Shown piece by piece: positions 21,797-57,412 of a stretch of DNA of 64,000 bases. The notes under the pieces are model-generated. The model worked only from the letters and a program-made list of their open reading frames with translations. It made no database searches and had not been told where the DNA came from. The position numbers and the translations under genes are program-made. The stretch spans positions 69,814,001 to 69,878,000 of the forward strand of contig NW_024704742.1 in assembly GCF_018977255.1 (NCBI RefSeq). Reading direction: 5' to 3'. This DNA is from Callorhinchus milii (taxonomy: Eukaryota). The first letter of the stretch is position 1, and each line of letters begins with the position of its first letter.

Positions 21797-22425
21797 ACAA
21801 CAACAAAATTACATTTGTATAACGCCTTTCACATCGGGAGGACGTCCCAAGGCGCTGGACAGACAGAGTTACGGACCTGAATTTGAAATGTCCTCCCAAC
21901 ACGTACAATCCGACATTACATTTGTAAAGCGCCTTTCATGTCAGGATGACAATCAGGGATTAGGACCTGAGCGGGGGGGGGGGGGGGGGGGCGGGGTTTG
22001 GGATCAGGGAGGATGGAGGTCAGAGAGGGTAGGAGGTTGGCTGAAGGCACAGTCGAAGAAGAGGGTCTTGAGGCGCACCTTGAAGGAGGTGAGTAAGTGA
22101 GGCAAAGGGAATGTGGGATGGAGTTCCCGAGGGTGGGGGCATAGGCTGAAGGCCCGACCGCGGGACATGGAGCAGGCCAGAGGCTGCTGAGTAGAGGGAG
22201 CAGACAGGGTTAGCAGCTCAGAGAGACAGGAGGGGGCAAGGCCATGGAGGGCCTTGAAGATGAAGACAAGAATTTTGAACTCGATCCTCTGAGGGATGGG
22301 GAGGCAGTGGAGCCGGGTAAGAGTTTGTGTGATGGGGTCACAGAGCCTGGAGCAGGAGAGGACACGAGCTGCAGAGTTCTTGTGATCTGTAGCTTGTGGA
22401 GGGAAGAGTTGGGAAGGCTGACAAT
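21797..22425 (-). mobile_element. L2 3' fragment(s)
   Basis: NSAARVL..RLHCLPIPQRIEFKIL..FKVRLKTLFF, with tails near 21797 and 21915. Confidence 0.85.
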
Positions 22426-25400: not shown

Positions 25401-27034
25401 TCATAGTCCTGAACATTACAGGTCTCAACTTCAAGCAAACAGGTATTGAGCAACAAGTCCCTAAAAAAGTGAAGTCCGTAACACTTTCTCTTTGCCACCA
25501 TTCTAACAAAGAAGGTTTCAGAACATGCTCCGACTTTATAAATAGAACATTGTAATAAGAAAACTGATTAAAGTGAAATGGCCTCGCACTCCAGCATAGA
25601 AAGGCTGCTGTCTTACACCATAACTATTCCTCAGTCTATCAAGGAACAGTGAATCTTTTGTTGCTGTACAAAGCCCGGCTTTAAGAGAATCATTTCATGC
25701 CTCACCGTCAAGTCCAGATAAATAGCTCTTGTGCGGCAGTAACCAGAGTCTCTCACTTGACATTTTTCATGGAACTTTTATTAAGATCACATGCAAATCC
25801 AGCCTTTCTCCCCAGTCAGTTCTTTGGAGGCATTGGGAATAAAGTGCGAGACATAACCCTCCCCCTGCTCCAAAAGCAAGCCTACTTACTTGCAGTGACA
25901 GGTTCAGTTGTGAGCAGTCTTTCCCAGCACTCAGGGCTACTCAGAACAAATGCTTAGTGAGTATTCTTGATAAGTTTCATAGTAGACTTAGTACAGTAGT
26001 TAGTCCCAAGCACTTCAATATCTGTTTATATTAATAATAATCCTTGCATTTGATATAGAGAATTATCACATCGTTGAGATGTCTCTAAGTGATTCACAGC
26101 ATATATTGTAAAAAGTGAATTAACTGTATTTTGTGGGTGAAACACAGCAGCCAATTGTGCACATCAGTATCGCATAAACATGGATTTAGTAACTGAATTA
26201 TTATTATTTTTAGATTTTTGAAAAGCAGTTGTGGATTTACCACATTATTAATAATATGAATTATTATTATTAATAATGTGGGAATCCCACAACATCTTTT
26301 TTTTAAAGAAAGGTCAATCAGCAGAACGGGAACATTTCTCATCCCTGAATGCATAGCCCTGCTGTTCTCCTGGGGATCAGTCACAAAAACAAACCCAGTG
26401 AACCTAAAGGAGGTGTTCCATGCTGTTCAGTGCCAAAAAACCTCTTTGCAGCCTCCAACTATTTTCACTAGATATACATTTGCTAGATTTTAATTTTACC
26501 ACAAATTGACTGCCGTGATCACCCACAAAACACAGTCACTACAGTTTATAGTATATCTGTGAAGCAATTTGAGACTTCCTCCTGATAGGAAAGATGTTAT
26601 ACCAAATGTAAGAATTTTCTATTCCTACCATCCAGGAATAAAAATTGGCTGATGTCTGACAGGCAATCTGTCAAAAACAGCTGTGGTCTTTGGATCAAAG
26701 AAGAGAAAGACAGAAAGTTTGGCGTAGTCTGCCTAAATGTGGATGTGCACCCATGTCCACAGGTGATATCAGTGGTGTAATGCGTGTGTGGGGGGAGGGG
26801 TGTAGCACACTGATAGTAAAAAAAGCAGGACTGAAAATAGAGCCATGTGAATGTCCAGGAATGGGAGGAGATGCCATTGTAAGAGACAAAATGAAGATCC
26901 CAGCTAGGTAAGCGTGAAAGACTATGGAGAAGATCGGAGTGCTCAATGGTGTCAAATACGGCAGGAGATCGAGGGGAACAAAGGAGCAAAGGAAACCCCG
27001 GTCACAGATGGAGAGAAAGTCATTGGTGACTTGG

Positions 27035-28640
27035 ACAACAACAACTTGAATTTATATAGCGCCCTCCACGCCGGACGGCGTCTCAGAACGCTTTACAGTT
27101 TAGGATCCCAGGGCTGAGCCAGGGGGAGGGGGAGGAAGGTGACCGAAGGCGCAGTCGAAAAAAAAGGTCTTCAGCAGAGACCTGAAAATGGGAAGGGAGG
27201 GAGCGAGACGAAGGGAGTGAGGAAGGCAGTTCCAGAGCCTCAGGGCATAATGGCTGAAGGCACGGCCACCAAGGGTGGAGCAGAGGACTCGGGGGACGAG
27301 GAGGAGGCCAGACCCGGAGGAACGAAGGCAACGATGCGCCAGAGGTGGAAGAAAGCGGTGCTGGTGAGGGACCGGATGTGGAGGAGGAAGGATAATTGGG
27401 GGTCGAACCTGACGCCTAGGTTGCGTACGGGTTCAGAGAGTTTTAGGGGGAGGTCGGGTAGGTGGAGGAGATGAGAGCCGTGAGATTTTAGACGTTGACG
27501 GGAGCCAAAGAGTATGGATTCCATCTTGTCAAAGTTCAGCTGAAGGAAGTTTGCACTCATCCAGCCCCTGAGGTCTGACAGGCAGGCTGACAGAACATCA
27601 GGGGACTGAGGGTTGCAAAGAAAGGTGGAAAAATAGAGTTGGGTGTCATCTGCATACATGTGGAAATGTACCCCATGTCTGCGGATGACATCACCAAGAG
27701 GAGCATGTAGATCAGAACGAGGAGGGGGCCAAGGATGGATCCCTGGGGTACCCCGCAGATAACCGGGTGAGAGCGGGAGGAAAAGTCGTTTGTGAGATGT
27801 ACTGCTGGTGGTTTGTGAGGTAGGACTTGAACCAGGCGAGTGCGGTCCCACTGAGGCGGATGACGGAGGAAAGGCGGTGGAGGAGGATGGCGTGATCGAC
27901 TGGGTCAAACACGGCGGAGAGGTCCAGGAGGACAAGGAGGCAGAGGGAGCCCTGGTCACAGATAGAGAGGATGTCATTTGTGACTTTCACAAGCGCAGTC
28001 TCTGTACTGTGGGCAGGGGGGAAACCACACTGGAGGGGTTCGAAGAGGGAGTGGGAGGAGAGGTGTGCGCGAAGTTGGTTTGCAACAACACTTTCTAGAA
28101 CTTTTGAGAGGAAGGGTAGGTTAGAGATAGGGCAGTAGTGGCTGAGGTTTGAGGGATCTAGGGAGAATTTTTTCAGGAGGGGGGTGATGACAGCAGTTTT
28201 AAGGGAGGCAGAGACTGATCCGGAGGGAGGGACTGGTTAATAATGTCAGCAGAGGGGGAGTTGGGTGACCAGTAAGTTGGTGGAGAGGGGGTCGAGGCAG
28301 CAGATGGTGGGTTTCATGGAGGTGATGGTGGGTGAGAGGGAGGAGGAAGAGATGGGGAGGAAGGAATATGGAATGGGCGTGGTGGTAAGAGCAGATGATG
28401 AGGAAGGTGAGGAGAACAGAGAGGGCATGGTGGAGGGTGACAAGAGGCAGGTGGATGAGGCTGCCTGGCGGATGTTAAGTATTTTAGATGAAAAGAAGTC
28501 CATGACCTCCTCGCACTTGGTATTTGATACGAAGATTGAGGAGACCTGAGGGGGGGCACGGAGGAGGTAGTGGGTGGTGGAAAAAAGGATTTTAGGGTTG
28601 TATTTAGCTCCAAGATGATGTTGGAGTAGAAGGCCGTTTT
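27035..28640 (-). mobile_element. L2 LINE fragment with RT (an older L2 piece adjoins at about 26600-27030)
   Basis: [39 protein letters not shown] and (CAA)n tail at 27035. Confidence 0.9.
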
Positions 28641-29155
28641 TGGGACCAGAACAGTCTTGGTGCTGTAGGTTGAAATCATATTAGAGGGGTTCAAAGGAGA
28701 GTGGTTGGAGAGAAGTTAGGAGGCAACAACACATTCTAACAGTTTGGAAGGAAAGGATATATTGGAGATGGGTTAATTACAAGAGAGCATGGAGAAGTCT
28801 AGTGAAGTTCTTGACAAAATTAATATATCTTGAACATGCACGAGAAAACATGCAGTGAGACGTTTAATGCCTCATCCAATATCTGCACCTCCAAAAGTGC
28901 CATACTACTCCAGTACTATATTGGAGCATCAGCTTAGACTATGAGTTTGAGTCCTAATGTGGAGCTTGAATTGACAAACGCCTGATGCAGAAGTGACCAA
29001 TTTAGCCAGGCACCAAAGGATCACATACCTCTATTTTTTTGTTCTTCAAAAAAAAATGATGAACTTTGACTGTAAATGGCTACCATGCCATCTGAGGTGC
29101 ATTATACGGCAGTACTGTCTTGGGGAATTTTAGCATCAAAACCATGATCTGAAAT

Positions 29156-29510
29156 TATAATAATCCTTGCATTTGATACAGCGCTTTATCACGTCGTTGA
29201 GATATCTCAAAAGCGATTCACAAAATATACTGTAGAGTGAATTGACTGTAGATTTTGTGGGTGAAACACGGCAGCCAATTGTGCACAGCAGTGTCCCATA
29301 AACAGTCGTGGAGTGAGTGACCAAATTATTATTATTATTTTAAAGGGATTATTACCCACGGAAATCAATTAACAACTGAATTCCTATTAACTGCTAGGTA
29401 AACAGAAGGTGTAGAGTAAGAAAACTTGCCCACGATTTCGCCCCACCCATGAATCGAACCCGGGTCCTCGAGCTTGTGAGGCGAGTGCTCTAACCAATTT
29501 GCTACAGGAC
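29156..29510 (-). mobile_element. Older tRNA-headed Deu-type SINE, full length
   Basis: Tail at 29156, core, B box GAATCGAACCC, head ending GCTACAGGAC. Confidence 0.85.
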
Positions 29511-29914
29511 ATGAGTTATAAAAAAAATTTGTTGACCTTGTGCTCTCAATTTTGAGCATTTGGCTTCTCTGTGGATTTCCTCAATCAGTTTTTTGTTACA
29601 CGCTTCCTTTTTTTCATCCCTGAAGCCACACTGGCAGAAGAAACTGCTCCCCATCGATCGTCCAATTGCCTCTGGCTTAATCGTCACATCTCTGATCAGT
29701 TATGCCTTTTTAAATTGTGGCTTTCTCAGGGGGCAGATTTCTTTTTATAAACCATTTACAGACACTGTGTCTACAATTTTAGATTCCTCTCATCTTTTAT
29801 GGCTTAAGGCTATTTATTTTCAGAGCGCAAAATATTTGAAAAAATTTAAACCTCAGATGTTGTATGGGCCTGAGGACTTGGACTGTGAGAGCGAAACAGG
29901 AGGGCAATGGTTAC

Positions 29915-30180
29915 ACAAGAACATAACAAATTGCTAGACAAAAGAAGAGAAAGATCCATTCAGTTCGCCTTCCACCATCCTGGCAGTCGCTTGTCATGTC
30001 GTGTCCCAAACTGTATATTATATCCTGGGATATTATTTTCCAACAGAAATCTATCTAATTTGTTTTTAAAACAAACAACACTTTCTGCTTCCACCGTCTC
30101 CCTAGGCAGCCTGTTCCATACGTTTAGTACTCGCTCACTGAAGTAGTGTTTCAGCAGATTTGATTCGAATTTAAGCCCCC
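29915..30180 (-). mobile_element. CR1-clade LINE 3' end (related tail at about 43120-43233 on +)
   Basis: YFSERVLNVWNRLPRETVEAESVVCFKNKLDRFL is the typical CR1 ORF2 C-terminus; TTATGTTCTT tail. Confidence 0.85.
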
Positions 30181-33100
30181 CTTCGATTGCAGGCCACATC
30201 CTCTGGTTCGAATGTTCAGTACACGATAAAACAGCTCATCGCGGTCTGCATTATCTGTACCTTCAGAATCTTACAGACCATTGATCCAGATCTCTCCTTC
30301 TCCTTTCACCACCGTGAGCAGCTAATTTGTGCACATTTATGTCCCACAAAAAGGAGCAGTGAGTACTTTCAACATAGAATCCTTGAACTTTACCACAAAA
30401 TATATCTGAACTCTGAACTCACAATCCAGGCTGACACTCCAGTGCAGCTCCGGGGGGAACGAGGCACTGTGGGAGGGAGCGTCCTTCACATGAGACGTTA
30501 AACTGAGGTCCTGTCAATGCCTGTCCAAGTGGATGTTAATGTTCCCCTGGCGCAATTCATAACGAGAAGAGAATTTCTCCCAGTGTCCTGGACAATAATC
30601 CCCCAGATAATAATTGGCCATTTACTTCATGTAGCAAATTGGATTCTTATAGCATATTGGTTTGATTTCCTGCCAGGGCGAAACGTTGGGCAAGTTTCCT
30701 TACTCCACAAGCCTCTGTCTACCTAGGAAGTAAGTAGGAGCCCGGTTGTTAGTCGATTGGCAGATCACTTTTCCGAAATAATAATCCCTTCAAAAAAATA
30801 ACAATTTGGTCACTCAATCCAAGACTGTTTGTGGGACACTGCTCTACACAATTGGCTGCTGTGTTTCGTCGCCTAAATATACAGTTAATTCACTTTACAG
30901 TATATTTTGTGAAGCACTCTGAGACAACTCAAAAATGCAATAAGGCTCTGTATGAAATGCAAGGATTATTATTGTACTGTGCACAAATTGGCTGTCGCAA
31001 CAAACAGTCACTTCATTCTTACAATAAATCCTGTGAAGTGCTTCGTGATAATAATAATAATAAGCCTTGCATTTAATAAAGCGCCTTATCATAACATTGA
31101 GAAAATAGCATTTCACAGAATATGTTGTGCAATGGAACGACTATATTTTGTGAGCAAGATGCCCTCCCGACATGAAGGGAAAAATTGCAAAGATTAATTT
31201 ATTATTATCAATTAAGTCTGCCCTGTTTGTTTGATCCCATTCTACTTCCCCCACAGCCCTCAGCATTCCTCCTCTTCAAAAATCAAATTCCCTGATAAAG
31301 AACTCTGCTTCAGCTACAACTTGGAGCACAGAATACCACATTCCAACCACACTGTGTGTATTCCTGTCATTCCCAAGCAAAAGCAAAGAAACCACTTATA
31401 AAAGTTTTATGGGTTAGCTCTCAAACATGAAGCCACATGTGCAGCATGCAAAGCAGAATGTGAAAGAAAATCAACAAATATCGACAAACATTGACAAAGA
31501 AAATCGCTCCTGTGATAAACTGAATAATAATAATAATAATCATTGCATTTGATATTGCCCCATATCACATTGTTGAAACATCTCAAAACGCTTCATAAGA
31601 TTTACTGCAAAAGTGACTATTTTTGTAGGCAAACATGGCAACCAATTTACAAACAGACCATACACAAACAAACACACACACACACAAACACAATTTGGAA
31701 AGAGTTTCTCCTGGAGTCCTACACAACAAATTCCAGATAAATTGGTCAGTCACCCCCTGTTTGTAGGACATAAATGTGCACAAATTGGCTGCTATGTTCA
31801 CCTACAAATACAGTCAGTACATATTACAGAAAACTCTGATGCACTTTGAAACGTTTTGGCGTGACAAGATGCTATATCAAATGCAAGTATGAATAACTCA
31901 AACCCTTCAACAAGCCGGTTACACACTTAAGGTAATGATTGTGCATTTTGTACAAGAAAACTTATACAGCAAAACAACTAAGAGTAAATTTGTGCTCCCC
32001 TCCTGACCCCAGTCAAGCTTTCAGATGTCCACTTGAGCAAATTTAAAATGATTTTCTTTCATTTACTGCCCTCCAAGATGAAGATAGATACACCAAAATA
32101 TGTTAAGTGGTTAGAATTATCAGAAAAAACACCCTTAAGCACTGAAGCAGCACAAAGCCGGGCAGTAAAAGACCATTTAAATCAAATCTATGCTTGTGAC
32201 ATTGCAAAGATGGAGCAATGGCACCAAATTGATTTGACTCACATTGGTCGCCAATGGTGATATGAATCATTTTTAAATTTCAGCTTCTCCGCTCAAACTC
32301 AATCAGAAATAAGCAAGACGTGGCTGTAAATACACCTTCAGAAAATCAATTCACACAATAATTGTACTGTATAGTAGCTATACTGTTTGAACTTGCAACA
32401 AAGTGCTCCAAATTTAGTTTGATAATAGCCTATCAACCAAATTGCTTTGATGCTGCAGTTCAATTTAACACTAAGCTACAATAATGTCCTTCAGTGTTCA
32501 ACATTCCTATTTAACCAATCTGTTTTCTTTTTTTAAAAATCTAACAGCAAAAACACAGAAGAGCACAGCTTCAATGTGCAACCAACAATTTGGCTAATTG
32601 TGTGAAGCTCTGGCATTAGCCAGGCTCAGAGTCTCACCCCTGGGTCAGAAGGCCGTGGGTTCACACCACACAATAGGACATGAGCCCAGTCTAGGCTGGC
32701 CATTTCAGTATGGTCGGGGGGTGGGGGGAGACTGAATTATCAGAGGTTCAGCCTATCAAAAATATCTTTCAGTTGAAAAAGTAAAGAGTTTCCGTCAACC
32801 TGGTCTATGACATACACAAACAAAAAACCACTATGCTTGAGTCACCCCCCCCCCTCTTACCCAATTTCTTAGAATTTAGGCACGGTTAACAAGAAGTTTT
32901 TTTTTGGTCAGTGGGTGTCTGACACAAGCGGAAACCCATCACCATGTGCTTAAGAGTATCCAAACCAAACTAAGAATTCCATGCATTTATCATGGAAATT
33001 CCAGAGATAAATGGAATGCGTACTCTCTCCTGGTTCTTGGCAAGAGGCAAGACTTGAGGACCCCAGTGTGTATATTGGATTACCGCTGGACTCCAGCAAA

Positions 33101-36100
33101 AATCGTACAAGCAAATGTTTGCCTAGCTAGGGCCACTCCTGGCAGGGCTTTGGCTTTCAAGGTTATCAAGTGTGTCACCTTGGAGCTAACTCAACCCTAA
33201 ATAGACCCTGTTTACCTCCCTCATCCCCTCAGGATAACCACTGGTTGTCCATGAAAAATAACTAACACAGGTTTTAGCCATCACAGATAGCAGGTACCAA
33301 TAACTTTTTGCCAGCCATATGGGAACACAACAGTATCAGCATATGAGGTGGGAATTTCTTCAGCATATGCTTTGACTTCACTTCCACATTCGAGAGCCCT
33401 GATGCGGAAAAGCACGCATAATCCATATAAGAACCCTTGCATTTAAAACAGCGCCTCCACATAATTGCTGCCAAGTGTAGTACGGTAGGCAAATACTTGG
33501 GGATATTTTGTCCATTACGCACTGTGCTGTATATACCTGTAAAGTTCTTTAAGAAACATTGCCTGCCTCCACCACCACCACCCCTTGGGCCACCAAGACC
33601 CTCAACCACATTTGGCCAACGATCTGCTCGCTGGACTCTTCAACTCTTCCTTAAACAGGATGCAGACTATCCACAACTTTGCAGGCTGTGTCCTTGTCCA
33701 CACCTGCCTCTGCAAGCCTCTCACTCCCATCCACTGCTCCATTGGCTCCCTATCCCCCAGCGGATTGAGTTCAAGATTCTCATTCTCACCTTTAAATCCA
33801 TCCTTAGTCTCGACCCATGCTACATCTGTGACTTCTTTTAAACCTAACAGCCCAGCCACTTCCTTTGCTCAGTGAGCACAGGCCTGCTTTGTGTTTCCTT
33901 CTCAATCCAACCATCCACAGGCAAGCATCCAGCCATTCGGCCCCCACTCTTTGGAATTTCATCCCGGAATCCATCCAACTCATTCCCTCCCTTTATTCAA
34001 GGGGAGTTTCAGTTATCTTTCCCTTCCCCTTGGCTCCCAATCCCAGCTCGGTGCCCATCCAACAAAAAATTGCATTTATATAGCAACTTTCACGCAGAGA
34101 GCATCTCAAAGAGCTTAACAATGGCGGAGCTTGACACCGAGCTGGGGAAAACAGAGATGACCATAGGAAGAGGAACGACGAGGAAGGTCGACAAGGAAGC
34201 TCTTTAGATGCAACTGAAGCTGGCAAGGAGGGGGCAAGTTAGAGAGCTTAAGGTCTCTACGGTAGATTCCTGCTTCAAATCTACTGCAGTGAAATATAGC
34301 TTCAATGCGACGTTTTCCATGATAGCCATTCTGTCCCCATTGAAGTATGATTGTCAACAGTGGTTGAAACCACAGTCGATCATGGCAGAGTACTTTAAAA
34401 CATCCTCCCATGGTGAAAGGCGCTGTATAAATGTTAATTGTATTGCACTGTAATATATTGTGATGTCATAGAAAAATATGCAAGTTCTTTTAAAGTTTTG
34501 AAAACATTAACAGATAAATTAACTCATTTGTCACATACATGATTGGCTTCAAATACAAGCACCTCAAAGCGATGCCACCCACCCATACATCAGAGAGATG
34601 ATGATTTTGTAGGCTCATGAATAATAGATGCAAAGGAATCAGTGAACCTTTCTGGATGAATTTTGTGTTCATTAAAACAGAAGCACTTCCCTTGTTTCAG
34701 CCTCATGCGATTAGGCACAGCCCTTAGCTAACACAGTAAAGTTCATTCCTGCTTCAAATCTACCGCAGTGAAATATAGCTTCAATGCGATGTTTTCCATA
34801 ATGCGTGATAGCCATTCTTTGCTCATCAAAGTGTGATTGTTAACAGTGCCAATGCAGAGGGAATCTGTGATGCTCCAACAATTGTTTGGGTCAATTGACT
34901 TTAGCTGCCAATTCCAACCGTAAGTGGTATGCATGGAACACTTAGTCTGATTTGGATACTGTTAAGCACGGCAATGGGTTTTCACATGAGTCAACAACAA
35001 GCTGACCAAAAAAAAATCCCCTGGTTAAATTGGTCCTTCATGTGATGGTGGTTTCTGTGTAGATGCTACAAAAACCTCTCTCTATGTGAGAAGAATTACA
35101 TTTGCGCTTTGTGGTGTTCGATATAGTATGGCAATGGAAAAATGCAAGTGCGTTCTTTCTAATGGAGCAGGTTTTGTGGCAAAAATGGGTGTTTCCACCC
35201 ACTTTGGTGTGACGATTGGGGGTGAGAAGACCAGCTCCTCACTCTCAGCACTTCCCCTTCGGGCAGCAGAAGTGTAAGCCCTTCTCTTTCTTCAATCCAT
35301 TCTGTGGAATTTTAGGAATAAACTCACTTTGGTGAAACTAACACATCCTAGCAGAGGTCAACGAAATTGACACAATGATCAGAATTTTAACAACATGCTC
35401 TAAATTTATAAATTGTCTTTGATGTAGGACCAACAATTCAAAGCATTTGAAGCATATCAATGAGAATCAGCAAGGTGAGGGGAAATGTGAGAGGTTCAGT
35501 AAAGCCACAAACATGTTTTAAGGTTTTGAAGGCAGGGAGTGAAGGTGCAAGAAAAAGCGGTTTAGGAGGGAGTGCCAGAGAGTTAGGAGGGAGGGAGAAA
35601 GGGGAGTATGAATCTCAAATCTCTCTCAAATGCAAGGATTATTATTATATCAAACACAGCACTAGGATACAAAGCAGTAGCTGAAGTAAATAACCTTTTT
35701 CTAAGAGAGAGCAGAATCTTAAGAATGTAATGTAAGAATGTCATCCCATTGAGTTTACTATATCATTCTATTATCTCATAGAAGCTCTTTATCCTTCTAA
35801 TCCCATTTACTTGCTATTCCTCCACATCCCTAGCAGTCTCCAACTGAAACCACTTCAATGATTTTGCATCAATGTGATCTTCTAGGGCAGTGCATTCCAC
35901 ATTCTCTTCAATTAATGTTTTATGTGCTCTTAATAAACCATAATATGTTCATTTGCTAATAAAAATTGAAAAAAAATTCAGTAGCTTTCCAAAATCACAA
36001 TAAGCCTTGCATTTGATGAATATAAGCCTTGCCTTATCGTGTCATTAAGATGTCTCAAAGCTCTTCACAGTATATATAGTAAAGTGGATTGACTGTATTT

Positions 36101-36297
36101 TGTGGATGAAACACAGCGGCCAACTTAAAAAGAACAAGTCATTGAAACGTTCCAAACTGTAAAGTGGCTGTTTTGTTGACAATCACAGCAGCCAATTTAC
36201 ACACAGCAATGTCCCACAAACAGCCACTCAGTGAGTGACTTATTTGGGGGATTGTTGGCTAAGACACCGGGAGAAACTCCCTTCTCATTTACTACCT

Positions 36298-36913
36298 CAC
36301 CCCTCAGGCCGCTGAAACTTTTGTTTATGCCTTCATCACCTCCAGGCTCGAAATTGCAAATGCTCTGCTTGTCGGCCTTCCCAACTCCTCCCTCCACAGG
36401 CTGCAGATAATCCAGAACTCTGCAGCCCGTGTCCTCTTCCGCACCAAACTCCGTGACCCCATCTCCCCCACTCTCCCCGACTCCATTGGCTCCCTATCCT
36501 TCAGAGGATCCAGTTCAAGATCCTGGTCCTCACTTACAAAGCCCTCCATGGATTCACCCCACCCTAACTCTCCGACCTCCTAACCCCCTACCAACCCTCC
36601 TGCTCCCTCAGCTCAGCCGGCTCTGGCCTACTCCACGTCCCCCAACCCACCCGCCCCACCATTGGTGGGAGAGCCTTCAGCCACTCTGCCTCCAACCTCT
36701 GGAATTCCATCCCTCAATCACTCCACCTCACCCCCTCCTTAGCCTCCTTCAAGTCCCGCCTCAAGACCCTCCTGTTCGACCATGCCATCGGCCACCCCCC
36801 TTCCCCTCTCCCCACCAACCCCTGCTTGGGTCTGAAATGCTGTACACTGTCCAGCGCCTTGGGACGTCCTCCCAACATGAAAGGTGCTACACAAATGTAA
36901 TCTTGTTGTTGTT
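36298..36913 (+). mobile_element. L2 3' fragment inserted in a SINE
   Basis: CAGATAATCCAGAACTCTGCAGCCCGT through to the (TTG)n tail; SINE sequence resumes as GAATAGTGCCATGGGAT. Confidence 0.85.
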
Positions 36914-37337
36914 GAATAGTGCCATGGGATTGTTAATGTCCACCTCAACCAGCAGACAGGACCTCAATTTAATGTCTCAACCATTCATTCAAACAGTGGT
37001 CAGCCTGTATTTACTCAAACAGACCATTATGCATATCTGCTTTGTCGTTGTTAAGGGAATTTATTTTATAAAGTTGAAATGTGGACGGGACAAAATGAAT
37101 GGCCAATTAATTGGTTTGGTTTTGGTGAATTTGAATGTGGAGGAATATTGTCCAGGACACAAAGGGGATATAGTCTAACAAATTAGAGAGAAGTTGGTTA
37201 GAAATGAACTCAGAAGACATTTCTGGACATATAGGGCTTTGTGAACATGGCATGCACTGGCCCAGTTGGCATTAGATGTAGAATCGCCTGATAAAAAACA
37301 GTTGAGAAGTAGGGGTAGAACCAGAACAAATTACAAC

Positions 37338-37418
37338 CGTTCTGATGAAGGGTCGTGGACCCGAAACGTTGACTCATTTTTCTTTCTCCATAGATGCTGC
37401 CTCACCTGCTGAGTGTTC
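37338..37418 (+). mobile_element. Penelope-type terminal fragment with minimal hammerhead motif (left part; right part at 40556-40620)
   Basis: CTGATGA-A-GGGTC-GTG-GACCC-GAAAC-GTT, followed by sequence homologous to the arm of the 54665-54871 element. It resumes as TGTTCCCAGCGACTTCTGC after the L2 insertion. Confidence 0.7.
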
Positions 37419-38168
37419 AACCTCGCGACTTCAACATCCACTTCACCCTCTCCTGCTCCACCTCCTCTCTCAACCTCTCTCTCCACATCCACCCTGCTAC
37501 CCACACCCACGGTCACCCACTCGACCTGGTAATCACCCAGGGCCTCAGCGTCCCGGATGTCACCAGGCCATCTCTGACCACCATTTCATCTCCCTCAACT
37601 CCCATATCCCTCTCCCCACTGCTTCCAAACCTACCACCATCTTCTACCGTCCTAGAAGAAGATCTCCCCGTAATCCCTCTCCCCTGCCCTGGAGTCATCT
37701 GAACTTCTCCCCCTCTGGCCCACCTCTTGCAACAACCACTCACTGACTCAATCTTCTCCACAGCACCCTCTTCACCACACTCGACGTCCTTGCCCCCCTC
37801 ACCTCCCTCACCGCCTCCTATTTCCGATCCTCACCCTGTTTCACCAGCCACCTCCGTTTGCTTAAGGGCCAGGTGAGGTCTGCCGAATGCAATTGGCTCA
37901 AATCCGGCCTAACGGTCCACCGCCACATCTGGCTGGACCTCATCAAGACCTACCACTCCTCTCTCACCTCAGCCAAATCGTCCTTCTATTCCAGGTTAAT
38001 CCTGGAGGCAAAGGGCAACCCCAGACTCCTGCTCTCCACCACTAACCGGCTCCTCCACCCTCCCCAACAAGCCTCGCAGATACTTTCCTCTGACTCTCAC
38101 TGCGAGAAAATGCTGGACTTCCTCGAGTCCAAAATTGAGGGAATCCGCTCAGCTGCCACTACCCTCCC

Positions 38169-38482
38169 AGTCCTGTAGCTCAGTGGTTAGAGCACTCGCT
38201 TTGCAAGTGAGACACCTGAGTTCAATTCCAGGCAGAGGGCGAAACCTTGGGCAAGTTTCCTTACTCCACACAGAGCCTAATAATAATCCCTCCAAAAAAA
38301 AACAATAATAAATTGGTCATTTTCAATCTACGACTGTTTGTTGGACATTGCTGTGCGCAATTGGCTGCCGCGTTCGCCCACAAATATACAGTCAATTCAC
38401 TTTACAGTATATTCTGTGAAGCGCTTTGGGACGTCCTCCCGACGTGAAAAGCGCTATATCAAATGCAAGGATTATTATTATA
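38169..38482 (+). mobile_element. Young tRNA(Ala-like)-headed Deu-type SINE
   Basis: A box TAGCTCAGTGG, anticodon arm CTCGC-TTTGCAA-GTGAG, B-box-like GAGTTCAATTCC, Deu-like core GCTGTGCGCAATTGGCTGCCGCGTT, L2-like tail and (ATT)n end. Confidence 0.9.
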
Positions 38483-39866
38483 ACTTCCACTCCCTCCCTA
38501 TCCCCACTCCACATAATTACCCATCCGACAATTATCCATCCCTCACTCCACACCTTTGAGCCTGTCACCCCCTCCTCTGTCTTCAACACGGTAATTTCCA
38601 TGAAATCCACCAACTGCTCCCTGGACCCCATCCCCACCCCTCTCCTTTAAACCCCAGCTCCACCTCCTTGCCCCACTACTCGCCGACATCATTAACCTCT
38701 GTCTGTCATCTGGCACTGTTCCTTCCCCCCTCAAAACAACCACTATCACCCCCACCTTGAAGAAACCTTCCCTCAACCCATCACAGCTGTCTAACTACCG
38801 GCCCATCTCAAATCTCCCCATCCTATCCAAGGTCCTTGAGAGAGTCATTGCCTCCCAGCTTCACTCTTTCCTCTCCTCTCACTCTATGAACCCCTCCAAT
38901 CGGGTTTCAGTGCTGCCCACAGCACGGAATCTGCTCTGGTCAAGGTCACAAATGACATCCTGACCACGTGTGACCAGGGCTCCCTCTGCCTCCTCGTCCT
39001 CTCGGCCGCCTTTGACACCGTGGACCACTCAATCCTCCTGCACCGCCTCTCCTCCCACCTCAACCCTTAAGGTTCTGTCCTTAGCTGGTTCAGATCCTAC
39101 CTTTCACACCATATCCACTTCGTCGCGGCAAACGGTTTCTCCTCCACCCCCCGTACTGTCTCGTGCGGTGTTCCTCAGGGTTCTGTCCTCGGTCCCCTCC
39201 TCTTCACCCTCTACATGCTCCCCTCTTGGTGACATCATCCGCAGACATGGGGTAAATTTCCACATGTATGCGGATGACACCCAACTCTACCTCTCTGTCT
39301 CCACCCTCAACTCCAGGAATATTGGCGTCCTGACCAACTGCCTGTCTGACATCAAGTCCTGGACGAGGATCAACTTTCTCCAACTCAAAGTCAGCAAGGC
39401 CGAGGCCCTCTTGATTGGCTCGCGCCAGCATCTCCACACCTCAGGCGCTGGCAGCATCAGCCTCCGCGGCTGCACACTCAACCTGGGTATCCTGTTTGAC
39501 CCTGAATTGTCCTTTCTCCCCCACATCCGCGCCACGACTGACATTGCCTACCACCACCTCCACAACACTGCCAGACTCCGCCACTGCCTCACCCCTCAGG
39601 CTGCCGAAACCCTCACCCACACATTCGTCACATCAAGGCTCGATTACGGGAACTCCTTCCTCATCGGCCTTCCCAACTCTTCCCTTCACAAGCTGCAGAT
39701 CATCCAAAACTCTGCAGCTCGTGTGCTCTCAGGCACCAGGCTCCGTGACCCCGTCACTCCCACCCTCGCCCGACTCCACTGCTCCCCATCCCCCAGAGGA
39801 TCGAGTTCAAGATTGTCGTCCTCACCGTTAAGGCCATCCATGGCCTTGCCCCCTCCTACCTCTCTG

Positions 39867-40195
39867 ATAATAATAATAATAATAATAATCCTTGCATTTG
39901 ATATAGCGCTTTTCACGTCGGGAGGACGTCCCAAAGCGCTTCACAGAACACACTGTAAAGTGATTTGACTGTATATTTGTGGGCGAACGCGGCAGCCAAT
40001 TGCGCACAGCAATGTCCCACAAACAATCGTAGATTGAAAATGACCAATTTATTATTGTTTTGGGTTTGGAGGGATTATTATTAGGCTCTGTGTGGAGTAA
40101 GGAAACTTGCCCAAGGTTTCGCCCTCTGCCTGGAATTGAACTCAGGTCTCTCGCTTGCAAAGCGAGTGCTCTAACCACTGAGCTACAGGACTCCA
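39867..40195 (-). mobile_element. Young tRNA-headed Deu-type SINE inserted in L2
   Basis: Near-identical reverse complement of 38169-38482, with short duplication CTGAT at 39864-39868 and 40201-40205. Confidence 0.9.
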
Positions 40196-43100
40196 GCAGA
40201 CTGATCTGCTGACTCCCTACCAACATGCCCGCTCCCTCCTTTCATCGGGCTCCGGTCTGCTCCATGTCTCCCACCCGACCCGCCCTACCATCGGTGGCCG
40301 GGCTTTCAGCCTCTCTGTCCCCACACTCTGGAACTCCATCCCATGGTCCCTTCGCCTCGCTTCCTCCCTTGGCTCCTTCAAGGTCAGTCTCAAGACCCTT
40401 CTCTTCGATCGTGCCTTTGGTCTCCCTCCCACCTCTCTGCCTTCCCTCACCCGTACACCACCCCTCCCCCATGCTCGGGCCCCAACACCTGACTGTTCAG
40501 CGCTTTGGGACATCCTTCCAACGTGAAAGGTGCTCTATAAATGTAAGTTTGTTGTTGTTCCCAGCGACTTCTGCTTTTGTTTCAGATTTCTAGCATCTGC
40601 AGTATTTTGCATTTTGTTTTACATTATAACAGTAGTTTAGTTCCACAAAAATCGGAGACTGTTATACCCTGATTATACAGAACACCCGCATTATTATTGG
40701 AGTTGAGGTGCATATCAGCAATGATCTAATAGGATGGCGCAACAGGTTTGAGGGACTGAATGGCATACTCCTTTTCCTATATTCCTATGTTCCGTAGCAC
40801 AGTGGTAGCAAGAGAACCCGGGTTCGATTCCCAGTAAATAGGAACCCTATTACCCCCAGTTTCCGGAAGTAATGATCCTTAAAAAAAATTGGTCACTCAA
40901 TCTACAACTGTTTGCAGGACACTGCTGTGTTCAATTGGTTGCTGTGTTTTCGCACAAAATACATAGTCAATCCACTTTACAATATATTCTGTGAAGCGTT
41001 TGAGATATCTCAACGACATGATATGGCTCTGTATCAAATGCAAGGATTTATTTTATTATTATTGATAAAAGACCTGTGCTTCATCAAAGCATGTTTTAAT
41101 GGGGTCCAACTAGACTCAGAAATTGATGAAGGATGAAGAAATAGGATTAAAAGATCATCTGCCGTGAATTGAATCAACAGAATGGACTCTTCTGTTCCTG
41201 CGTAACAGAGGGTTCCTTGCTCTTCTTTGAATTTATGCCAAGAGATCTGCAACGCATCGTACAATCAAACCAACGAGAGCGATTATACCCAGTAAACCCA
41301 GGTCAGTATGGGTTTAGCAGGTCACAGAAGTCGGGAGGAGCAAGCCTTTGAAAGCAAGGACGAGGATTTTGAACTCTATCCTCTGGAGGCCAATGGACCC
41401 AGGCGAGGGTGGGGTGATAGGGTCAAAGAGCATGGAGTGGGAGACGATATGAGCTGCAGAGTTCTGAATGATCTGTCACTTGTGGAAGGAAGAGTTGGGA
41501 AGTCCAACAAGCAGGGAAAGAAAGAAATGGAAGGGCAGAGAGGACAGATAGTATTGTAAACTACCACAAACAGATTGACAGTTGTGTGAACTCAACATAG
41601 AGCCTAGAAACCCTATCATGCATCAATTAACATTTCAACTCATACTTCGGGATTTACAGGCCAGATTACATTAGATATAAAAACTCAGCATCAAGCTAGC
41701 TTTTGGAAGAACCTGGAATGGCTTTATGAGAAGCAGAATCTCACTCATTTGGTCAAAAGTTGCAAGTTCCTTAAGGGAAATGGTTTAAATTTTTATACAA
41801 TCTTTTGCAGAAGGATGCCTTCCAAGTGCTTTCTGCCATTTGCAGAATACTGCATGTACTGCACAGAGACGTAATGCACAACAGAGGAGCAGACACCCCT
41901 CTCCAGAGGAAAGGCAAAACAAAACTGCATGGCCTTGTTACAAGGTAGTTCACATGGCCAACTTACAGCTGATAGGATCCCAAAGACCGGGCAACAGTCT
42001 GTGGGGTATGATTTCACCCAAATTTTCACCCCACAAAATGCATAGTCAATTCACTTCACAATATATTCTGCAATTTGAGTTTGAAACTTCAATGACCTGA
42101 TAAGGCGCGATATCAAATGCAAGCATTATTATAAGATGAGGGTAAATGTGAGAGGTTCAACAAAGCCAAACATTTTGTAAGATTTTGAAGGCAGGGAAAG
42201 AAGATGCAATAAAAGAAAAAAGGTTTTTGGGAGGGAGTGCCAGAGAATCGGGGGGAGAGGGGAAGAATCTCAAATCTCTTTCAAATACAGGGATGAATAG
42301 CATATCAAACACAAATATTCTTTATATTAGGCAAAAAGGAGATTAATCTGGATAGCCAGCACCAGGATACAAAGCAGCAGCTGAAGTAAACAGCCCTTTT
42401 CTAAGAGCAAGCAAAGTCTTAAGAAAAAAGGGAAAGGCCGCAAGACTGTTCAGCACCTTGGGACGTCCTTCCCACGTGAAAGGCACTTTGCAAATGTAAT
42501 TTTGTATTGTATAGTCTCTAAGATGAGACGTAATTAAGAATACTTGCATTTGTTATTGCGCCTTTCACATCTCAAAGCACTACACAGGATACATGTCAAG
42601 TGTAGTCACTGTGTGTATTTATAGGCAAACATGGCAGCCAAGTTGACCACAGCAATCTCCCCAAAACACAGGCATGAAGTGAATGAGCAATTTTTTCTGG
42701 GGATTGTTGGCCAGGACGTAGGGAGAAAATCTCCCTCCTCTTTTCAGTTAGTGCCAAGAGATCTTTAACAATCACTCGACCAAGCAGACAGGACCTCAGT
42801 TTAATATCTAATCAGAAAAACAACAGCTACCACAACAGTTCTCCTGCAGCTGTATTAGTGTCAGCAGATATTGTGAGTTCCGAGGCCCAATCTGAGGCTT
42901 GAACCCAGAACTTTCTGATTCAGGCGAGAGGCGAGCCAGGCTGACACCATGCTGAGGTCTCGTCTGTTCAAGTAAAAGGATTTCATGGTGTAATTTCAAG
43001 GAGGGTGCATGTCACTAATCATAACACAAACAAAATTAATCCTAAACATAGACTAATCGGTCATTCAGTAAAATGTCACTTATTGGACAGTGTAGACAGT

Positions 43101-46100
43101 GTAGGAAATAATATCTCAGGATGCAGTATATAGTTTGGGACACGACACGTCATGCGACTGCATGACTGCATGGTGGAAAGTGAACCGGATGAACCTTGGT
43201 CTTCTTTTGCCTAGCAAATTCTTATGTTCTTATGGTTGTATGGTACTATAGGTTGTAGTTTGTTGCAGATTAACTGCTGTGTTAGTCAAGTCACAGCACT
43301 TCTGAGTAGTTGGATAACTTACAAGTGTAATTTTCAATACAGTGGCTGCAAATTTCGGCTCCAACTCCAGTAAAAGGTGCTGAAAGGATTTTAGATAATT
43401 CCAAAATCTAAACAATTCTCATCAAAATGAAGATGATATAATACAGTGATAATCTAAATGGCGAAACCCGAGGATCAGAGATTTTATATATCATCAAAGA
43501 CCAAACAAGTCGTATGAACCTTTGACACATCAGTGGTGAAGCTACATTTAGAGTACTCATTATATTTACACTTAGTATTTCTACTATATTTAATAATAAT
43601 CCTTACATTTGATAGAGCCTTATCACATCGAATGTGATATTCATTCGATGTGATAATGTCTCAATTCACCAGATACACTCATCTACAGCAGTATTATGGA
43701 GGTGAAGATTAATTAATGTATTTACGATTTATTTCCCTGATGTAGGTTCTGTCCCTCAATAAACAAAATGGGTGAGAAGGTATCACAAAATAATAGAAAT
43801 GGCATGGTCTGAGGAAGCAGTAGATTTAGATCCAATCCCATTATCTTTTTCTATACTTAATTCTTAAATCCTAAACCAGGACCATTCTGAAAAAAATAAC
43901 TTTCCTAGTAACCATTTATCCATTTACGAAAAACAACTATGTGTTGACCACAAGAACAATACACAGTATTGAATTTTGCGTGCATTTTCCGAGCTACTGA
44001 CAACCACCACTGAAAGGAGCATTCAATATCAGAAAAGGGTCACAAACTAGAAATGTCACTCATTATGGTGTCAAACCACAATCACTGATAAGAGGTTAAA
44101 AAAAACTATATACTGTACAATCCAATGTGTACAAAGGATCTCTAATGATCGATAGATATACATGCAAGCATGTAACACAATCTACATAATGCAAACATTA
44201 TCCTGCAATAAAGAGCTCTTTTCAAATGCAGTTTCTTATTATCAAGGGTTCTGTACAATAGCTGTCAGAAAGCTACATGGTACTATCTAGATTTGGGCAG
44301 TTTAGGAAGTCATTCTCCTGTTAGTTCTGGCGTATGGTCGATTTCATGACTTGGCACATTCTTTGTAGTGCAAACCATCACAAAAGAACAATAACAATAC
44401 TCCCTCGTAACTATCAACTTGCCTGAGAGAAACATGTAGACAATCCATTCCAGCAACCAAATAAATCCACTGCTTTAAGCAGCAAAGCAAATTTTAGCTC
44501 TCTTTAAATTGGGGTGAAAATAATAATAATAATCCTTGCATTTGATATAGTGCCTTAAATGCCAGTAAGACATCTCAAAGCACTTCACAGAATATACTGT
44601 AAAGAAAAGTGCTGTAATCTCAGCTACACTATGTGTAAAATCCCATGGACACTATTCAAAAAGACATTAGCTAATCACTTCCGGGCTGACTAGAACCTAG
44701 TCTGGAGCCCTGTTATATCACAGTGACAGAGGACTATAAATCCAGTGGCTCAGTTCCCACATGTTAAAAAAGACAACATCTGCCAATGTCACTTCCTGTA
44801 CGCAACATGCACAGCATGGAACTGACATCAGATGTGACCGAATCACCCAGAAATCAGCCATTTGTAGTGTGGGACCAGCCAGCAGACAGGAAGCAAGCAG
44901 CTGGCTATGTGCAGTGAATAGGATCTACATTTTATTAGCACCAGAAGCAAAATCCTCATCCTAACAAAGCACCTTATAATTGGGATCTGTTGCATTTGTC
45001 CACAAATACATAACTACTGAACATAATTTTGTAAGGATTGTTCATTACTTATTAAACATCTAAATGCTAGGAACTAAAATAGATAATTAAGCATAACAAG
45101 GCTATTCCACTTGGACCGATCAAACCACCATCTATGCAGCTGTACATTACATCCTCCATAAACAATGTTGTCAGTCACACTTTCTGCCAAGATAATCTAT
45201 TGCACTATTCCTTCCACGTGACTGAAATCAAAAAGAAAGACGTATTCAACACAATGACGAAATAAGGGGAAGTCTACAGCTGGTGAAACTAGTTTGAGAT
45301 GCTACTTTGAACTCACCTACACAGTTAAAAAATTCTGAAAATATTTTGTTCCTTTACAAAATACATAGTCATCATAACTTCACAGTATATCCTGTGAAGT
45401 ACTTCGAGATTACCTCCCAAACTGAAAAGATGCCATATCCAATGTAAAGATTATTACATCTACTCAAAACTGGAAGCGAAAACCACAACCCAGTTATGAA
45501 TAATACTCAAAAACAAATTACATTTATGTAGCGCCATTCACGTCAGAAGGACGACCCAAGGCGTGACTCATGTTTGATACATCTTTCACATCACGTGTCA
45601 AGAAACTTCCCAGGATATACAGTAAAGTGGAGGGCCTATCTTGTGGGTAAACTCGGCACTGCACTGGAGTGTCAGCATATGTTCCAAGTCCCAACGTGGG
45701 GCTTGAACCAACTCAGAGACAAGAATGCTACTAACTGAGACAGACTGACAAAATGAGTTCTTCAAACAAGGAATCCTTAACTACTGGAACCCTTTTGGCC
45801 CCTTCTACTTAGGAACACCTTCTGGCAAATGAAGGAAGGCTAATATAAACTGTAAGTCTCCGTTAGCGGCCTTCACACTTTGGAGGTTGAGGGAGAACTA
45901 TAGAATATCATATGACAGCATTTGCTTTAAAAATATATCAACACTCTCTGATGACGCAGTCGATAAACTGTCACCTGAATCTCAGAGAGAGAGAGGAAAA
46001 ATGACTCCTACCACCTCACCTTCGCTTCATGTTATGTTATATCAGGACCTCTGACAATTATCTTCAATTTGTGTCCTCTGGTTGGCGAACCACTCGCCAG

Positions 46101-46994
46101 AGGAAACAGTTCTTGCTTATTTCATAGAGTTAGTTCATCTTTATTTCATAGGTTAAATTCATAGTTAAAAATCCCGCACAGCACTTTGAAGCGCTTTGAT
46201 GCCATGATAAGGAAAATCAAATGCAATTATTAGTATCCTCCTCCTCAAACTCAGCAACTTTCTCAGGAACGAGTGTGAAACCTTTGTCTTGCTGCTATCC
46301 CACGGAACATGCTTCCAGGAGCCATGGAAACAACCAGTCAACTTCATAAAGCCGCTGAAATGAAGCACTTTTCAACAGGATAGTATTTTCTTGGAGCACG
46401 TCAGCCAAGCGAGACTGCGACTGCATTCATGACCTGTCCTGACCGCTCCTGTAGGGGCCCTATACACATTCCTCAAGCGGTCCCCGCTTGTTCCCTTGGA
46501 TTCCTTTGGACTTGATGCATAATCGACTCGCCTGGCAAGCTTTACAGGCGGGGATCGCTTCCCCATCTGTCTCAGTCCATGACCTAACCCTAACCTTACC
46601 AGCTTTCTCTCCCACCACCCCCCCCCCACACCGCCCTCCGAGTTCACTTTGCTGAATAAATTCCAAAAGATAAGGAAATCACCAGCAAAAATACCCCAAA
46701 GTAGCATCAAAACGAGCACAGAATGAACGAGAATATAAAAATAAATGAGACTTTGGAAATTAAAATCAAGCACATTCCATATAATGACCATTCAATATCT
46801 GGTCAACAATAAACAAGGTTCCACTTATTACTGTTCGGTAACAACCAGTGTACGGCCAAGAGCAAAAAGAACAGAGTATGGCAGCGTGCTGAAATCCTTC
46901 AACAATACACACTTCTACACACTTTGATTTTTTTTGCACTTTTATAAAAACTAAATTATTCAAAATAATTATTCAACTATTATTTTTCTTATAT

Positions 46995-47348
46995 TATTGA
47001 TAATAATCCTTGCATTTGATATAGAGCCTTACATTGTCATTGAGACGACTCAAAGCACTTTACAGAATATACTATAAAGGGTATTGACTGTATATTTTGT
47101 GGGCCAAACTCAGCAGCCATTTGCACAAAGCAGTGTCTCACAAACAGTCGTGGAATGAGTGACCTAATTGTTATTTATTTCTTTGAAAGGATTATAATCC
47201 CAAGAAAACAATCTGCCAAACATCTAACAACCAGGTTCCTACTTACTGCTAGGTAAACAGAGGAGTGTGGAGTTAGGAACCTTGCCTCAGGTTTTGCCCT
47301 GCCCAGGACTCAAACCCAGGTCCTCTCACTTGCAAAGCGAGTGCTCCA
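46995..47348 (-). mobile_element. Older tRNA-headed Deu-type SINE
   Basis: Same family motifs. Confidence 0.8.
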
Positions 47349-47644
47349 TTGAAAGACAAACCACACTCATTCTGTTGATATTCTAGAAATCTGTTAGGCG
47401 TCTGTCCATTAGACCTACTCTACAATATGCTCACACACAATTCTTACAGTGGGAAACATGTTTTACTTTTATTTGGGCAGGTCAACTGTTTTGAGACTGA
47501 CAATATCCAGTCTTGCACATTCATATCATCCCATTGTCCCCCTCTCCAAAAGCTCTCTATCCTGATCTGCCCCTGGTTTGGTGGACAAGCTTTTAGCCAT
47601 TCTGTCCCCTCTATCTGGTAACATGTTGTTGAGCACTCCGAGGT

Positions 47645-47970
47645 AATAGATAATTATAATAATCCTTGCATTTGATATAGCACTTTTCACATCTTCTGGA
47701 CATCTCAAAGCACTTTACAGAATATACGGTAAAGTGAATTGACTGTATATTTGTGAATAAAACGCAGCAGCCAATTGCACACAGCAATGTCCCACAAACA
47801 GTCGTGGATTGAAGTGACCAATTTTTTTTATTATTGTTTTCTTTTCTTGAGGGATTATTATCAAACATGTGGAGTAAGCAAACTTGCCCAAGGTTTCACC
47901 CCGGCGGGAATCGAACCCAGATCTCTCACTTGCGAGTCAAGTGCTCTAACCACTGAGCTACAGGACTCCA
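47645..47970 (-). mobile_element. tRNA-headed Deu-type SINE, full length
   Basis: Head CTCTAACCACTGAGCTACAGGACTCCA, B box GGGAATCGAACCC, core and tail. Confidence 0.85.
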
Positions 47971-48639
47971 CTGAGGACTTCACTGAGCTACTGGTAAGCT
48001 GCCCCGAGTGAAGGGCACTCTATAAATGCCAAGCAGTTGTTGTTGGTACTCAATCTCAAAGTCCTCGGCCTCGCACCCGCTCACCTGATCTTTAAAGTCC
48101 ACCTTAAGACCTTTCTTTTGACCTTGCCCCTCTTTCCTCAGTTCCCCCCTACCCCCAGCTTGGGTACGTGAAGCATAAGGAGATGTCCTCCCAACATGAA
48201 ATCCGCTGTATAAATGAATCATTTTTTAAAAATATGGAACACGATAGATATGAATTAACTTATAGCAGGGAGACTGAAAAATGGGAATCTGGGGGTAACA
48301 GCTATCAGCTTTAATGTTCACATTGTGATGTGAAACAATTCAACAAAACTAAGAAAACAGAAGTCTACTGAAGATTTGAAAGGCTCTGATCAGTTCCATA
48401 TGTGGAACATTATGAGCAGCTGTGTTCACCACACCACAAAAATATACCCTAAGGAATAAACTTCTTTATACTCAGAGTTAAAAATATTTGGAATAAATTT
48501 ACCAAGCAAAAAGCAACAGAGGCAAACACTTGGGGTTATTCAAAACAGTTTGATTCTGCTGTAGAAAAGCCACACTGCTTTTTCATTCCAAGTTCAATGA
48601 AAGAGCCCCTAAAAATTGTTAAAAAGCATCCCTTCGACT

Positions 48640-48990
48640 GTATTGGAGTAGTGTAGTGTTTAGCACGTGCGCCATACAGGCAAGGGAGCCGGGTTCAATT
48701 CCCGGGCAGTGCAAGCCCTTAAGACAAGTTTCTTACTCCACACACCTCGGTTTACCTTGCAATAAGCAGGAACCCTGTTGTTAGTTGATTGGCAGATCGC
48801 TTTCCGGGGGTAACAATCCCTCCAAAAATAATCAAAATTTGGTCCTTCAATCCACGACTACTCTGCACAATTGGCTGTCGCCTTTCGTCCACAAAATACA
48901 GTCAATCTACTTTACAATATATTCTGTGAAAAGTTTTGAGACGTCTCAACAATGTGATACGGCACTATATGCAAAGATTATTATTATTTC
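48640..48990 (+). mobile_element. Older tRNA-headed Deu-type SINE (many further partial copies occur throughout the window)
   Basis: GGGTTCAATTCCC B box, TTACTCCACAC, core and ATT tail. Confidence 0.75.
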
Positions 48991-50917: not shown

Positions 50918-51187
50918 TAATAATAATAATCCTTGCATTTGATATAGCGCTTTTCACGTCAGGAGGACGTCCCAAAGCGCTTCACAGAACACACTGTAAA
51001 GTGAATTGACTGTATATTTGTGGGCGAACGCGGCAGCCAATTGCGCACAGCAATGTCCCACAAACAGTCGTAGATTGAAAATGACCAATTTATTATTGTT
51101 TTTGGTTTTGGAGGGATTATTATTAGGCTCTGTGTGGAGTAAGGAAACTTGCTCAAGGTTTCGCCCTCTGCCTGGAATTGAACTCAG
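50918..51187 (-). mobile_element. Young Deu-type SINE, 5'-truncated in the tRNA head
   Basis: Nearly identical to the 39867 copy up to the B box. Confidence 0.88.
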
Positions 51188-54871: not shown

Positions 54872-54961
54872 TATCAAGAAATTGTGTTTTGTTAATTTGT
54901 TATCAAAAGTTGAACGTAGAAAGCAATGGTAACAGGTTGAATTTGGAGAAGGCAAAGGGGC

Positions 54962-57403: not shown

Positions 57404-57412
57404 AGACCAAAC

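Follow-up and report, generated by a model that had tools for sequence, protein, structure and literature searches.

We analysed a 64,000-nucleotide stretch of Callorhinchus milii DNA, referred to here as the window, which contains a hammerhead-like motif in an intron of ATRN. The motif is very probably the minimal hammerhead of an endonuclease-bearing (EN+) Penelope-like element (PLE), carried on a short and likely inert retro-copy that lies antisense to ATRN and was interrupted by a later LINE insertion. We refer to this retro-copy as copy 1 and to a second copy in the same intron as copy 2.

The motif and its copies in ATRN intron 1

The preliminary description of this DNA had given the letters CTGATGA (37342-37348), A (37349), GGGTC-GTG-GACCC (37350-37362), GAAAC-GTT (37363-37370) and GACTCA (37371-37376), and all of these are present as claimed; in copy 1, stem II is followed by GAAACGTT up to 37370 and then by GACTCA. 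Positions in the family are numbered from 0 at window position 37339. The features of the window are as follows.

37339..37418, plus strand: copy 1, the first 80 nt (0 to +79) of a short PLE end-piece, by family match; it starts at the G of stem I
37339..37341, plus strand: 5' strand of stem I, GUU, with its partner GAC at 37371-37373; where the family has 4 bp, this copy has 3
37342..37349, plus strand: core CUGAUGA and an extra unpaired A, the latter typical of PLE minimal hammerheads as far as these are described in PMC4209133
37350..37362, plus strand: stem II, 5 bp closed by a 3-nt loop; pair 10.1-11.1 is G-C in subfamily I and A-U in subfamily II
37363..37370, plus strand: GAA, palindromic ACGU and U17; stem III possible only in a dimer
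37419..40555, plus strand: later LINE insertion (reverse transcriptase (RT) fragments, GTT-repeat end) that splits copy 1, with TGTTC at both junctions
40556..40616, plus strand: rest of the copy 1 tail (about +75 to +136)
54806 down to about 54670, minus strand: copy 2, a complete short end-piece (0 to +136) with damaged stem II and palindrome
54805..54868, plus strand: inverted 5'-truncated partner of copy 2, a 64-nt arm and the source of the TGAG claimed earlier
54872..54883, with the other at 54653-54664, minus strand: target-site duplication (TSD) of copy 2, 12 bp exact, score 24 versus 20 for the 99th percentile of random flanks
21284..57914, minus strand: ATRN intron 1 (GT...AG), which holds both copies

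Copy 1 differs from the family majority at 4 of 80 nucleotides, none of them in stem II or at the 11 invariant core positions; the base at core position 7 is a CpG-decayed C. Position H17 is a U, and the core CUGANGA...GAAA...UH is present. Hammerhead numbering places the predicted cleavage between 37370 and 37371, a position that fits the cut after U37370 (GUU) put forward in the preliminary description. Stem I of copy 1 had been called partial, and it is, with 3 bp versus the 4 bp of the family. Copy 1 breaks off at 37418 because the LINE, about 3.1 kb in length, inserted into its tail; RVT_1 matches to this LINE (E=0.004-0.005) were below the cut-off. No TSD is claimed for copy 1, the best candidate matching at 9 of 11 positions with a score of 14, less than the 95th percentile of random flanks (16). 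Three tRNA-like heads (Rfam tRNA, 37-44 bits) were noted at 38173-38235 (plus strand), 40126-40188 (minus) and 47896-47967 (minus); they look like an abundant tRNA-derived SINE, and the LINE interrupting copy 1 contains the first two.

Taken by itself, the copy 1 site is weak, and chance could account for it. A loose descriptor (core plus 5-bp stem II) gave one match in the window versus a mean of 0.125 in 200 shuffles, 11.5% of which contained at least one match. An Rfam scan of the window returned 11 matches at E<=10, with no hammerhead family among them; a match to an Rfam hammerhead is not a defining trait of the minimal form. Single-strand folding gave a stability no greater than that of shuffles, and the minimum free energy (MFE) fold of copy 1 was not the hammerhead.

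Both copies had been placed in ATRN intron 1, and the exon boundaries agree with the exon 4 identity on this point: on the minus strand the last base of exon 1 is 57915 and the first of exon 2 is 21283, and the peptide encoded by exon 4 matches at 100% identity a protein that UniRef names Attractin, Callorhinchus milii. A PDB sequence search with the ATRN exon gave 0 matches. With the gene on the minus strand, the orientations originally described hold: antisense for copy 1, sense for copy 2. A domesticated intronic hammerhead combines sense orientation with an intact monomer fold; copy 1 is antisense and copy 2 is damaged. Copy 1 is likely to be inert and, as a lone stub, would have no role of its own.

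The claim that stem II of copy 2 is damaged also held, two of its five pairs being broken; in addition, C28 of the palindrome is changed to T. Copy 2 and its inverted arm form a hairpin of -116 kcal/mol (z -14.9), and the TGAG of copy 2 is the end of this arm, joined by microhomology. Copies in the window are single or inverted, and the tandem arrangement of at least two complete hammerheads that defines retrozymes is absent from it. Two short inverted pieces of the same PLE tail form a third, tiny fold-back relic without a ribozyme at 53577-53621, and a short tandem repeat with a unit of roughly 22 nt adjoins copy 2 at 54960-55035.

The PLE family and its ribozyme

Genomic pattern counts were made from exact matches only and are hence lower bounds. 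The 29-nt core pattern of subfamily I gave at least 518 matches and the pattern of subfamily II at least 208, with 0 for each reversed control, and these numbers therefore remove the doubt over chance at the copy 1 site. A 22-mer from the tail gave at least 4156 matches (control 0), and a 22-mer from the upstream region gave 468. The claim of a minimal type I hammerhead in a PLE terminal repeat is borne out by the presence of the core, the unpaired A, helix II, a short helix I and the palindrome.

The majority sequences of the two subfamilies differ at 7 of 61 positions, none of which is in the core. Five of these sites are in the ribozyme: two form pair 10.1-11.1 (G-C to A-U), two are in loop II, and one, at the base of stem I, turns a wobble into a Watson-Crick pair (U-G to U-A). 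The remaining two are tail bases. When subfamilies were assigned by independent diagnostic sites, pair 10.1-11.1 was G-C in 45 of 65 copies of subfamily I and A-U in 15 of 17 of subfamily II. Covariation had been proposed as a check on the motif, and the alignment gives an invariant core across the two subfamilies and one compensatory pair change in stem II. We consider this signal modest but real, reflecting a single compensated event at one pair between two subfamilies. A structure test on 8 hand-picked rows adds little, as 28-34 of 500 shuffles reached the observed values. Subfamily II made up 36 of the 94 copies picked by tail matches in the first 18 Mb of contig C1 and none of 45 loci picked by the endonuclease. 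Two loci, L191 and L192 (G000:C1, about 10.03 and 10.10 Mb), are 99.9% identical over 700 nt and represent either a recent segmental duplication or an assembly duplicate.

Stem I of the family is AGUU/GACU, with 4 bp in both subfamily majorities, and long copies read CCCCAGTT before the core. The preliminary description had reconstructed an ancestral 6-bp stem I, TGAGTT/GACTCA. This was rejected: none of the 26 long copies has TGAGTT, 2 of all 109 core-picked copies do, and the TGAGTT of copy 2 is an inversion junction. The proposal that the palindrome AACGTT serves as stem III stands in part. The inner ACGU, which is found in both subfamilies and forms no helix III in the monomer, could pair in a dimer, whereas the outer A and U are core bases, which by standard numbering we take to be positions 14 and 17.

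Decay was compared between core and tail in 98 copies of subfamily I and 36 copies of subfamily II. For subfamily I, changes in core and tail were similar at CpG sites (41/158 versus 48/179, p=0.90) and at other G/C sites (7/146 versus 89/1393, p=0.59), with 14/577 versus 79/1926 at A/T sites (p=0.078). At A/T sites of subfamily II the core changed less than the tail (4/192 versus 48/681, p=0.009); this difference could reflect some constraint on the core, but the tail rate of subfamily II is inflated because its tail is heterogeneous. Copies thus decay neutrally, like the adjoining DNA, with the A/T count of subfamily II pointing the other way. Among the 94 tail-picked copies, 58 cover the core; all 11 core bases are intact in 21 of these, and in 7 stem II and the palindrome are intact too. 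The intact core of copy 1, at 5% divergence, is therefore unremarkable. Selection on the ribozyme probably acted in the master elements, as the subfamily majorities vary at no core site.

The preliminary description had also proposed a link to Penelope RT/GIY-YIG elements, and this link is present. Long copies run upstream through an untranslated region (UTR) into the end of a GIY-YIG ORF. Conversely, the motif or tail was found downstream on the same strand, within 650 nt, in 45 of 54 distinct loci picked by the endonuclease, mostly at 220-330 nt from the end of the GIY-YIG ORF in these 45 loci. In locus L237, RT motifs are followed by a Cys linker, GIY-YIG and the hammerhead, all in a single, broken run. 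Locus L268 is a near-complete copy with a hammerhead at both ends, as expected for a PLE with a terminal repeat (pLTR) at each end; its order is a truncated terminal repeat with hammerhead, a tail running into the ORF start (an arrangement common to L260 and L261), RT, GIY-YIG, UTR and a second hammerhead. From these loci the layout of the element is terminal repeat (with hammerhead), tail, ORF (RT, Cys linker, GIY-YIG), a UTR of about 250-300 nt, hammerhead and tail. L268 (G000:C6:15512441-15515632) carries internal deletions, stops and frameshifts, and its 5' terminal repeat is truncated at -43, just keeping the TATA-like word.

Domain searches gave matches of low score. Pfam GIY-YIG was matched by 2 of 6 fragments (E=0.006 and 0.017) and Pfam RVT_1 by 1 of 4 fragments (E=0.0057), in each case below the curated cut-off, and 5 of the 6 fragments outside these matches had no relevant Pfam match. 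No relevant NCBIfam match was obtained for 5 fragments, and a PDB sequence search with an RT fragment gave 0 matches. In the Atlas, an RT fragment was placed with RVT_1/HTH_animal clusters (0.94) and a GIY-YIG fragment with eukaryotic GIY-YIG clusters (0.95). A Cys motif precedes GIY-YIG in L050 (as CxxCxxC) and L055. RT and C-terminal GIY-YIG follow in order in L237 and L268, but in a broken ORF, and no intact ORF was found among the loci examined. By its sequence features the element is an endonuclease-bearing PLE, and the Cys linker, a trait of the Neptune/Nematis type as characterized in the relevant part of PMC8557442, points to that type.

Several open frames were noted along the way. 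A 913-aa frame at G000:C4:58468298 was rejected as a PLE ORF, as it is a GIY-YIG end fused to a LINE. A LINE lies in frame behind a PLE GIY-YIG end at L091:582-3062 (minus strand), giving a chimeric open frame of 826 aa from stop to stop that could pass as one protein to gene callers. The tail contains an ATG at +55 (window 37394 onward; L268:924-1100) whose frame is open beyond +136, and the apparent start of the main ORF, near +165, is preceded by an acceptor-like pyrimidine tract; either a 5' UTR intron or an upstream ORF is suggested by this arrangement. Two further acceptor-like sites in the tail are possible cryptic splice sites in sense copies such as copy 2.

A shared 5' boundary at the ribozyme edge

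Breakpoints were mapped in 94 distinct rows, obtained from 95 of the 100 tail matches listed first on contig C1, among 4156 matches, with both arms of an inverted pair counted as separate rows; an inverted partner was found nearby in 51 of the 94. The 5' ends cluster at the ribozyme edge, 48 falling at -5..+5, 34 at +8..+48 and 12 at -8 or beyond (p=5e-14 versus a uniform spread over -5..+48). The 3' ends form two clusters, with 44 at +94..+108, 43 at +127..+136 and 7 elsewhere. No row begins at the cut product (+32) and 3 begin within 3 nt of it, so a cleavage product as template was rejected. This shows that the integrated copies derive from uncut RNA, in agreement with in vitro work on the anole element PAc.

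A second set was picked on the exact core and consists of 109 distinct copies from 110 places, 26 of them long and 83 short. Of the short copies, 74 extend no more than 2 nt beyond position 0; identity to the element upstream is seen in 58 of 83 at 0, in 42 at -1 and in 33 at -2, and is at background at -3. In contigs of run X9, whose kind is unclear and which are perhaps not independent, 81 loose ends fall at the same base. Contigs of three runs guessed to be RNA cover the piece, although contigs cannot give strand, ends or level. In 52 long copies of subfamily I and 4 of subfamily II, the boundary itself carries an Inr-like CCAGTT, and a TATA-like word lies upstream at -30..-24. The short copies share no upstream flank, the longest common run being 4 nt in 820 pairs among 41 non-inverted short copies. 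A cap-derived extra G was unsupported (17/54 versus 17.0 expected, or 8/25 versus 6.6 without inverted arms).

The shared 5' boundary likely marks a transcription start. Transcription would begin from the Inr-like CCAGTT at the 5' edge of the ribozyme, with the TATA-like word about 29 nt upstream. The RT would prime within the tail, on uncut RNA, as shown for PAc. Reverse transcription from the tail nearest the 5' end of the RNA would run off after 100-136 nt and leave promoter-less stubs such as copies 1 and 2, and that from the downstream tail would give longer ORF-bearing copies; the ribozyme itself would cut only as a dimer or with the help of protein. We give the combination of an RNA start at the ribozyme edge with run-off from the first tail a little better than an even chance on the basis of the breakpoints. 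The chances are balanced for the general form of the proposal, in which the hammerhead of vertebrate Neptune-type PLEs makes up the first 36 nt of a transcript from a TATA-Inr promoter and the stubs of 100-136 nt are run-off cDNAs. If this proposal is true, a cut would remove the cap and could route the RNA between translation and use as a template, and the stubs would record, as fossils and to the exact base, where transcription starts and the two sites at which reverse transcription begins.

Other origins of the 5' boundary are less probable. The upstream sequence, with a branch-like CTTA, a pyrimidine tract and CAG, is compatible with a 3' splice site, so the boundary could be a splice acceptor and the short copies could come from spliced RNA. 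The bases of the short copies at 0, -1 and -2 (G 58, A 42 and C 33 of 83) resemble an exon-end consensus. There is precedent in D. virilis, where the Penelope intron is described as ending at the 5' end of helix I (PMC4209133). Splicing would predict a common upstream exon, however, in conflict with the unrelated flanks of the 41 non-inverted short copies; no spliced joint at the boundary was seen among the joints listed for the three RNA-guessed contig sets, which is weak evidence, and on balance we consider a splice acceptor unlikely. A similarly low probability attaches to an RT stop or template switch at the ribozyme fold, rather than an RNA end. This would accommodate the 5' ends scattered within the ribozyme, the frequent inverted partners and the microhomology at junctions such as that of copy 2. 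On the other hand, an RT moving 3' to 5' should meet the fold at about +36 rather than exit at 0, and the boundary is identical in two subfamilies and at TATA-Inr spacing. A transcription start at the boundary is itself challenged by the Penelope promoter of D. virilis, reported in PMC2377424 as internal and TATA-less.

The short pieces might also constitute a non-autonomous SINE- or retrozyme-like family with its own master, instead of PLE by-products. They far outnumber long copies, judging by the tail and upstream 22-mer counts, and have defined ends, and retrozymes have been proposed as PLE derivatives (10.64898/2026.07.22.740005). Short and long copies nevertheless carry the same diagnostic bases in both subfamilies, the short copies are without the upstream promoter-like words, and the copies examined are single or in inverted pairs; a separate master is therefore quite improbable. 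Least credible of all is a working intronic ribozyme acting on ATRN RNA, like the domesticated intronic hammerheads of amniotes. Copy 1 does keep every core base and a perfect stem II, and copy 2 is in the sense orientation with a stem I lengthened by its long hairpin. Against this, copy 1 lies antisense, with a stem I of 3 bp, no monomer stem III and an MFE fold other than the hammerhead; copy 2 has lost two stem II pairs; the in vitro assays described in PMC4209133 showed no cleavage by monomers of this type; and an intact core is common by chance at this level of divergence.

Relation to known systems

The comparisons made here draw on parts of the cited papers. Our literature search, from which supplements were outside the scope, found no report on this PLE family or on 5' ends piling up at the ribozyme. 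The kind of motif is already published, and copy 1 is one of thousands of decaying stubs; as an antisense stub of a published kind it matters little in itself. The role of the PLE hammerhead is called unclear in PMC8557442, and it is on this role that the breakpoints of the family bear, as they predict an exact transcription start.

Minimal type I hammerheads (min-HHRs) were described in the pLTRs of metazoan PLEs by Cervera and de la Pena (2014; PMC4209133), who found them scattered singly, by the thousand, through the genomes of fish, coelacanth and frog. Features in common with these include such dispersal, the core, the unpaired base before stem II, a 4-bp helix I, a palindromic 15.2-16.2, the lack of a helix III loop, opposite-strand pairs and covarying families. 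The family described here differs from them in its 5-bp stem II (7-8 bp in Schistosoma), in the U at position 17 and in the A-U of subfamily II in place of G10.1-C11.1, and no chondrichthyan is named in the part of that paper considered here.

With the non-LTR retrozymes (10.64898/2026.07.22.740005) the family has in common a type I hammerhead and a relationship to PLEs, and one chondrichthyan is included there; the definition of those elements, however, requires a tandem array containing two or more complete ribozymes. The pLTR of Pen2a_Av from Adineta vaga (Arkhipova et al. 2013; PMC3846280) is alike in having an Inr-like word with a putative TATA some 20 bp upstream, an inverted pLTR and TSDs of 9-10 bp. 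It differs in that the account considered here connects these words neither with a hammerhead nor with clustered 5' ends, and an antisense template was also considered. Likenesses to the Neptune/Nematis EN+ PLEs (Craig et al. 2021; PMC8557442) extend to the RT with C-terminal GIY-YIG and Zn-finger-like linker, partial tandems, an inverted 5'-truncated partner and an optional tail of 30-40 nt.

A further related system is the Poseidon element PAc from Anolis carolinensis (Frangieh et al. 2024; PMC11167929), in which the tail is set by two internal start sites of reverse transcription, the template RNA is uncut and the hammerhead cleaves only with protein. The ORF of PAc starts at stem II; in our family the main ORF seemingly starts near +165, with a short frame from +55, and the Cys linker before GIY-YIG is a Neptune/Nematis trait, unlike PAc. 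Common to both are two clusters of 3' ends 30-40 nt apart, a tail that is the start of the element body and the lack of ends at the cut site. In having two groups of 3' ends and no ends at the cut site, the family matches the behavior of PAc.
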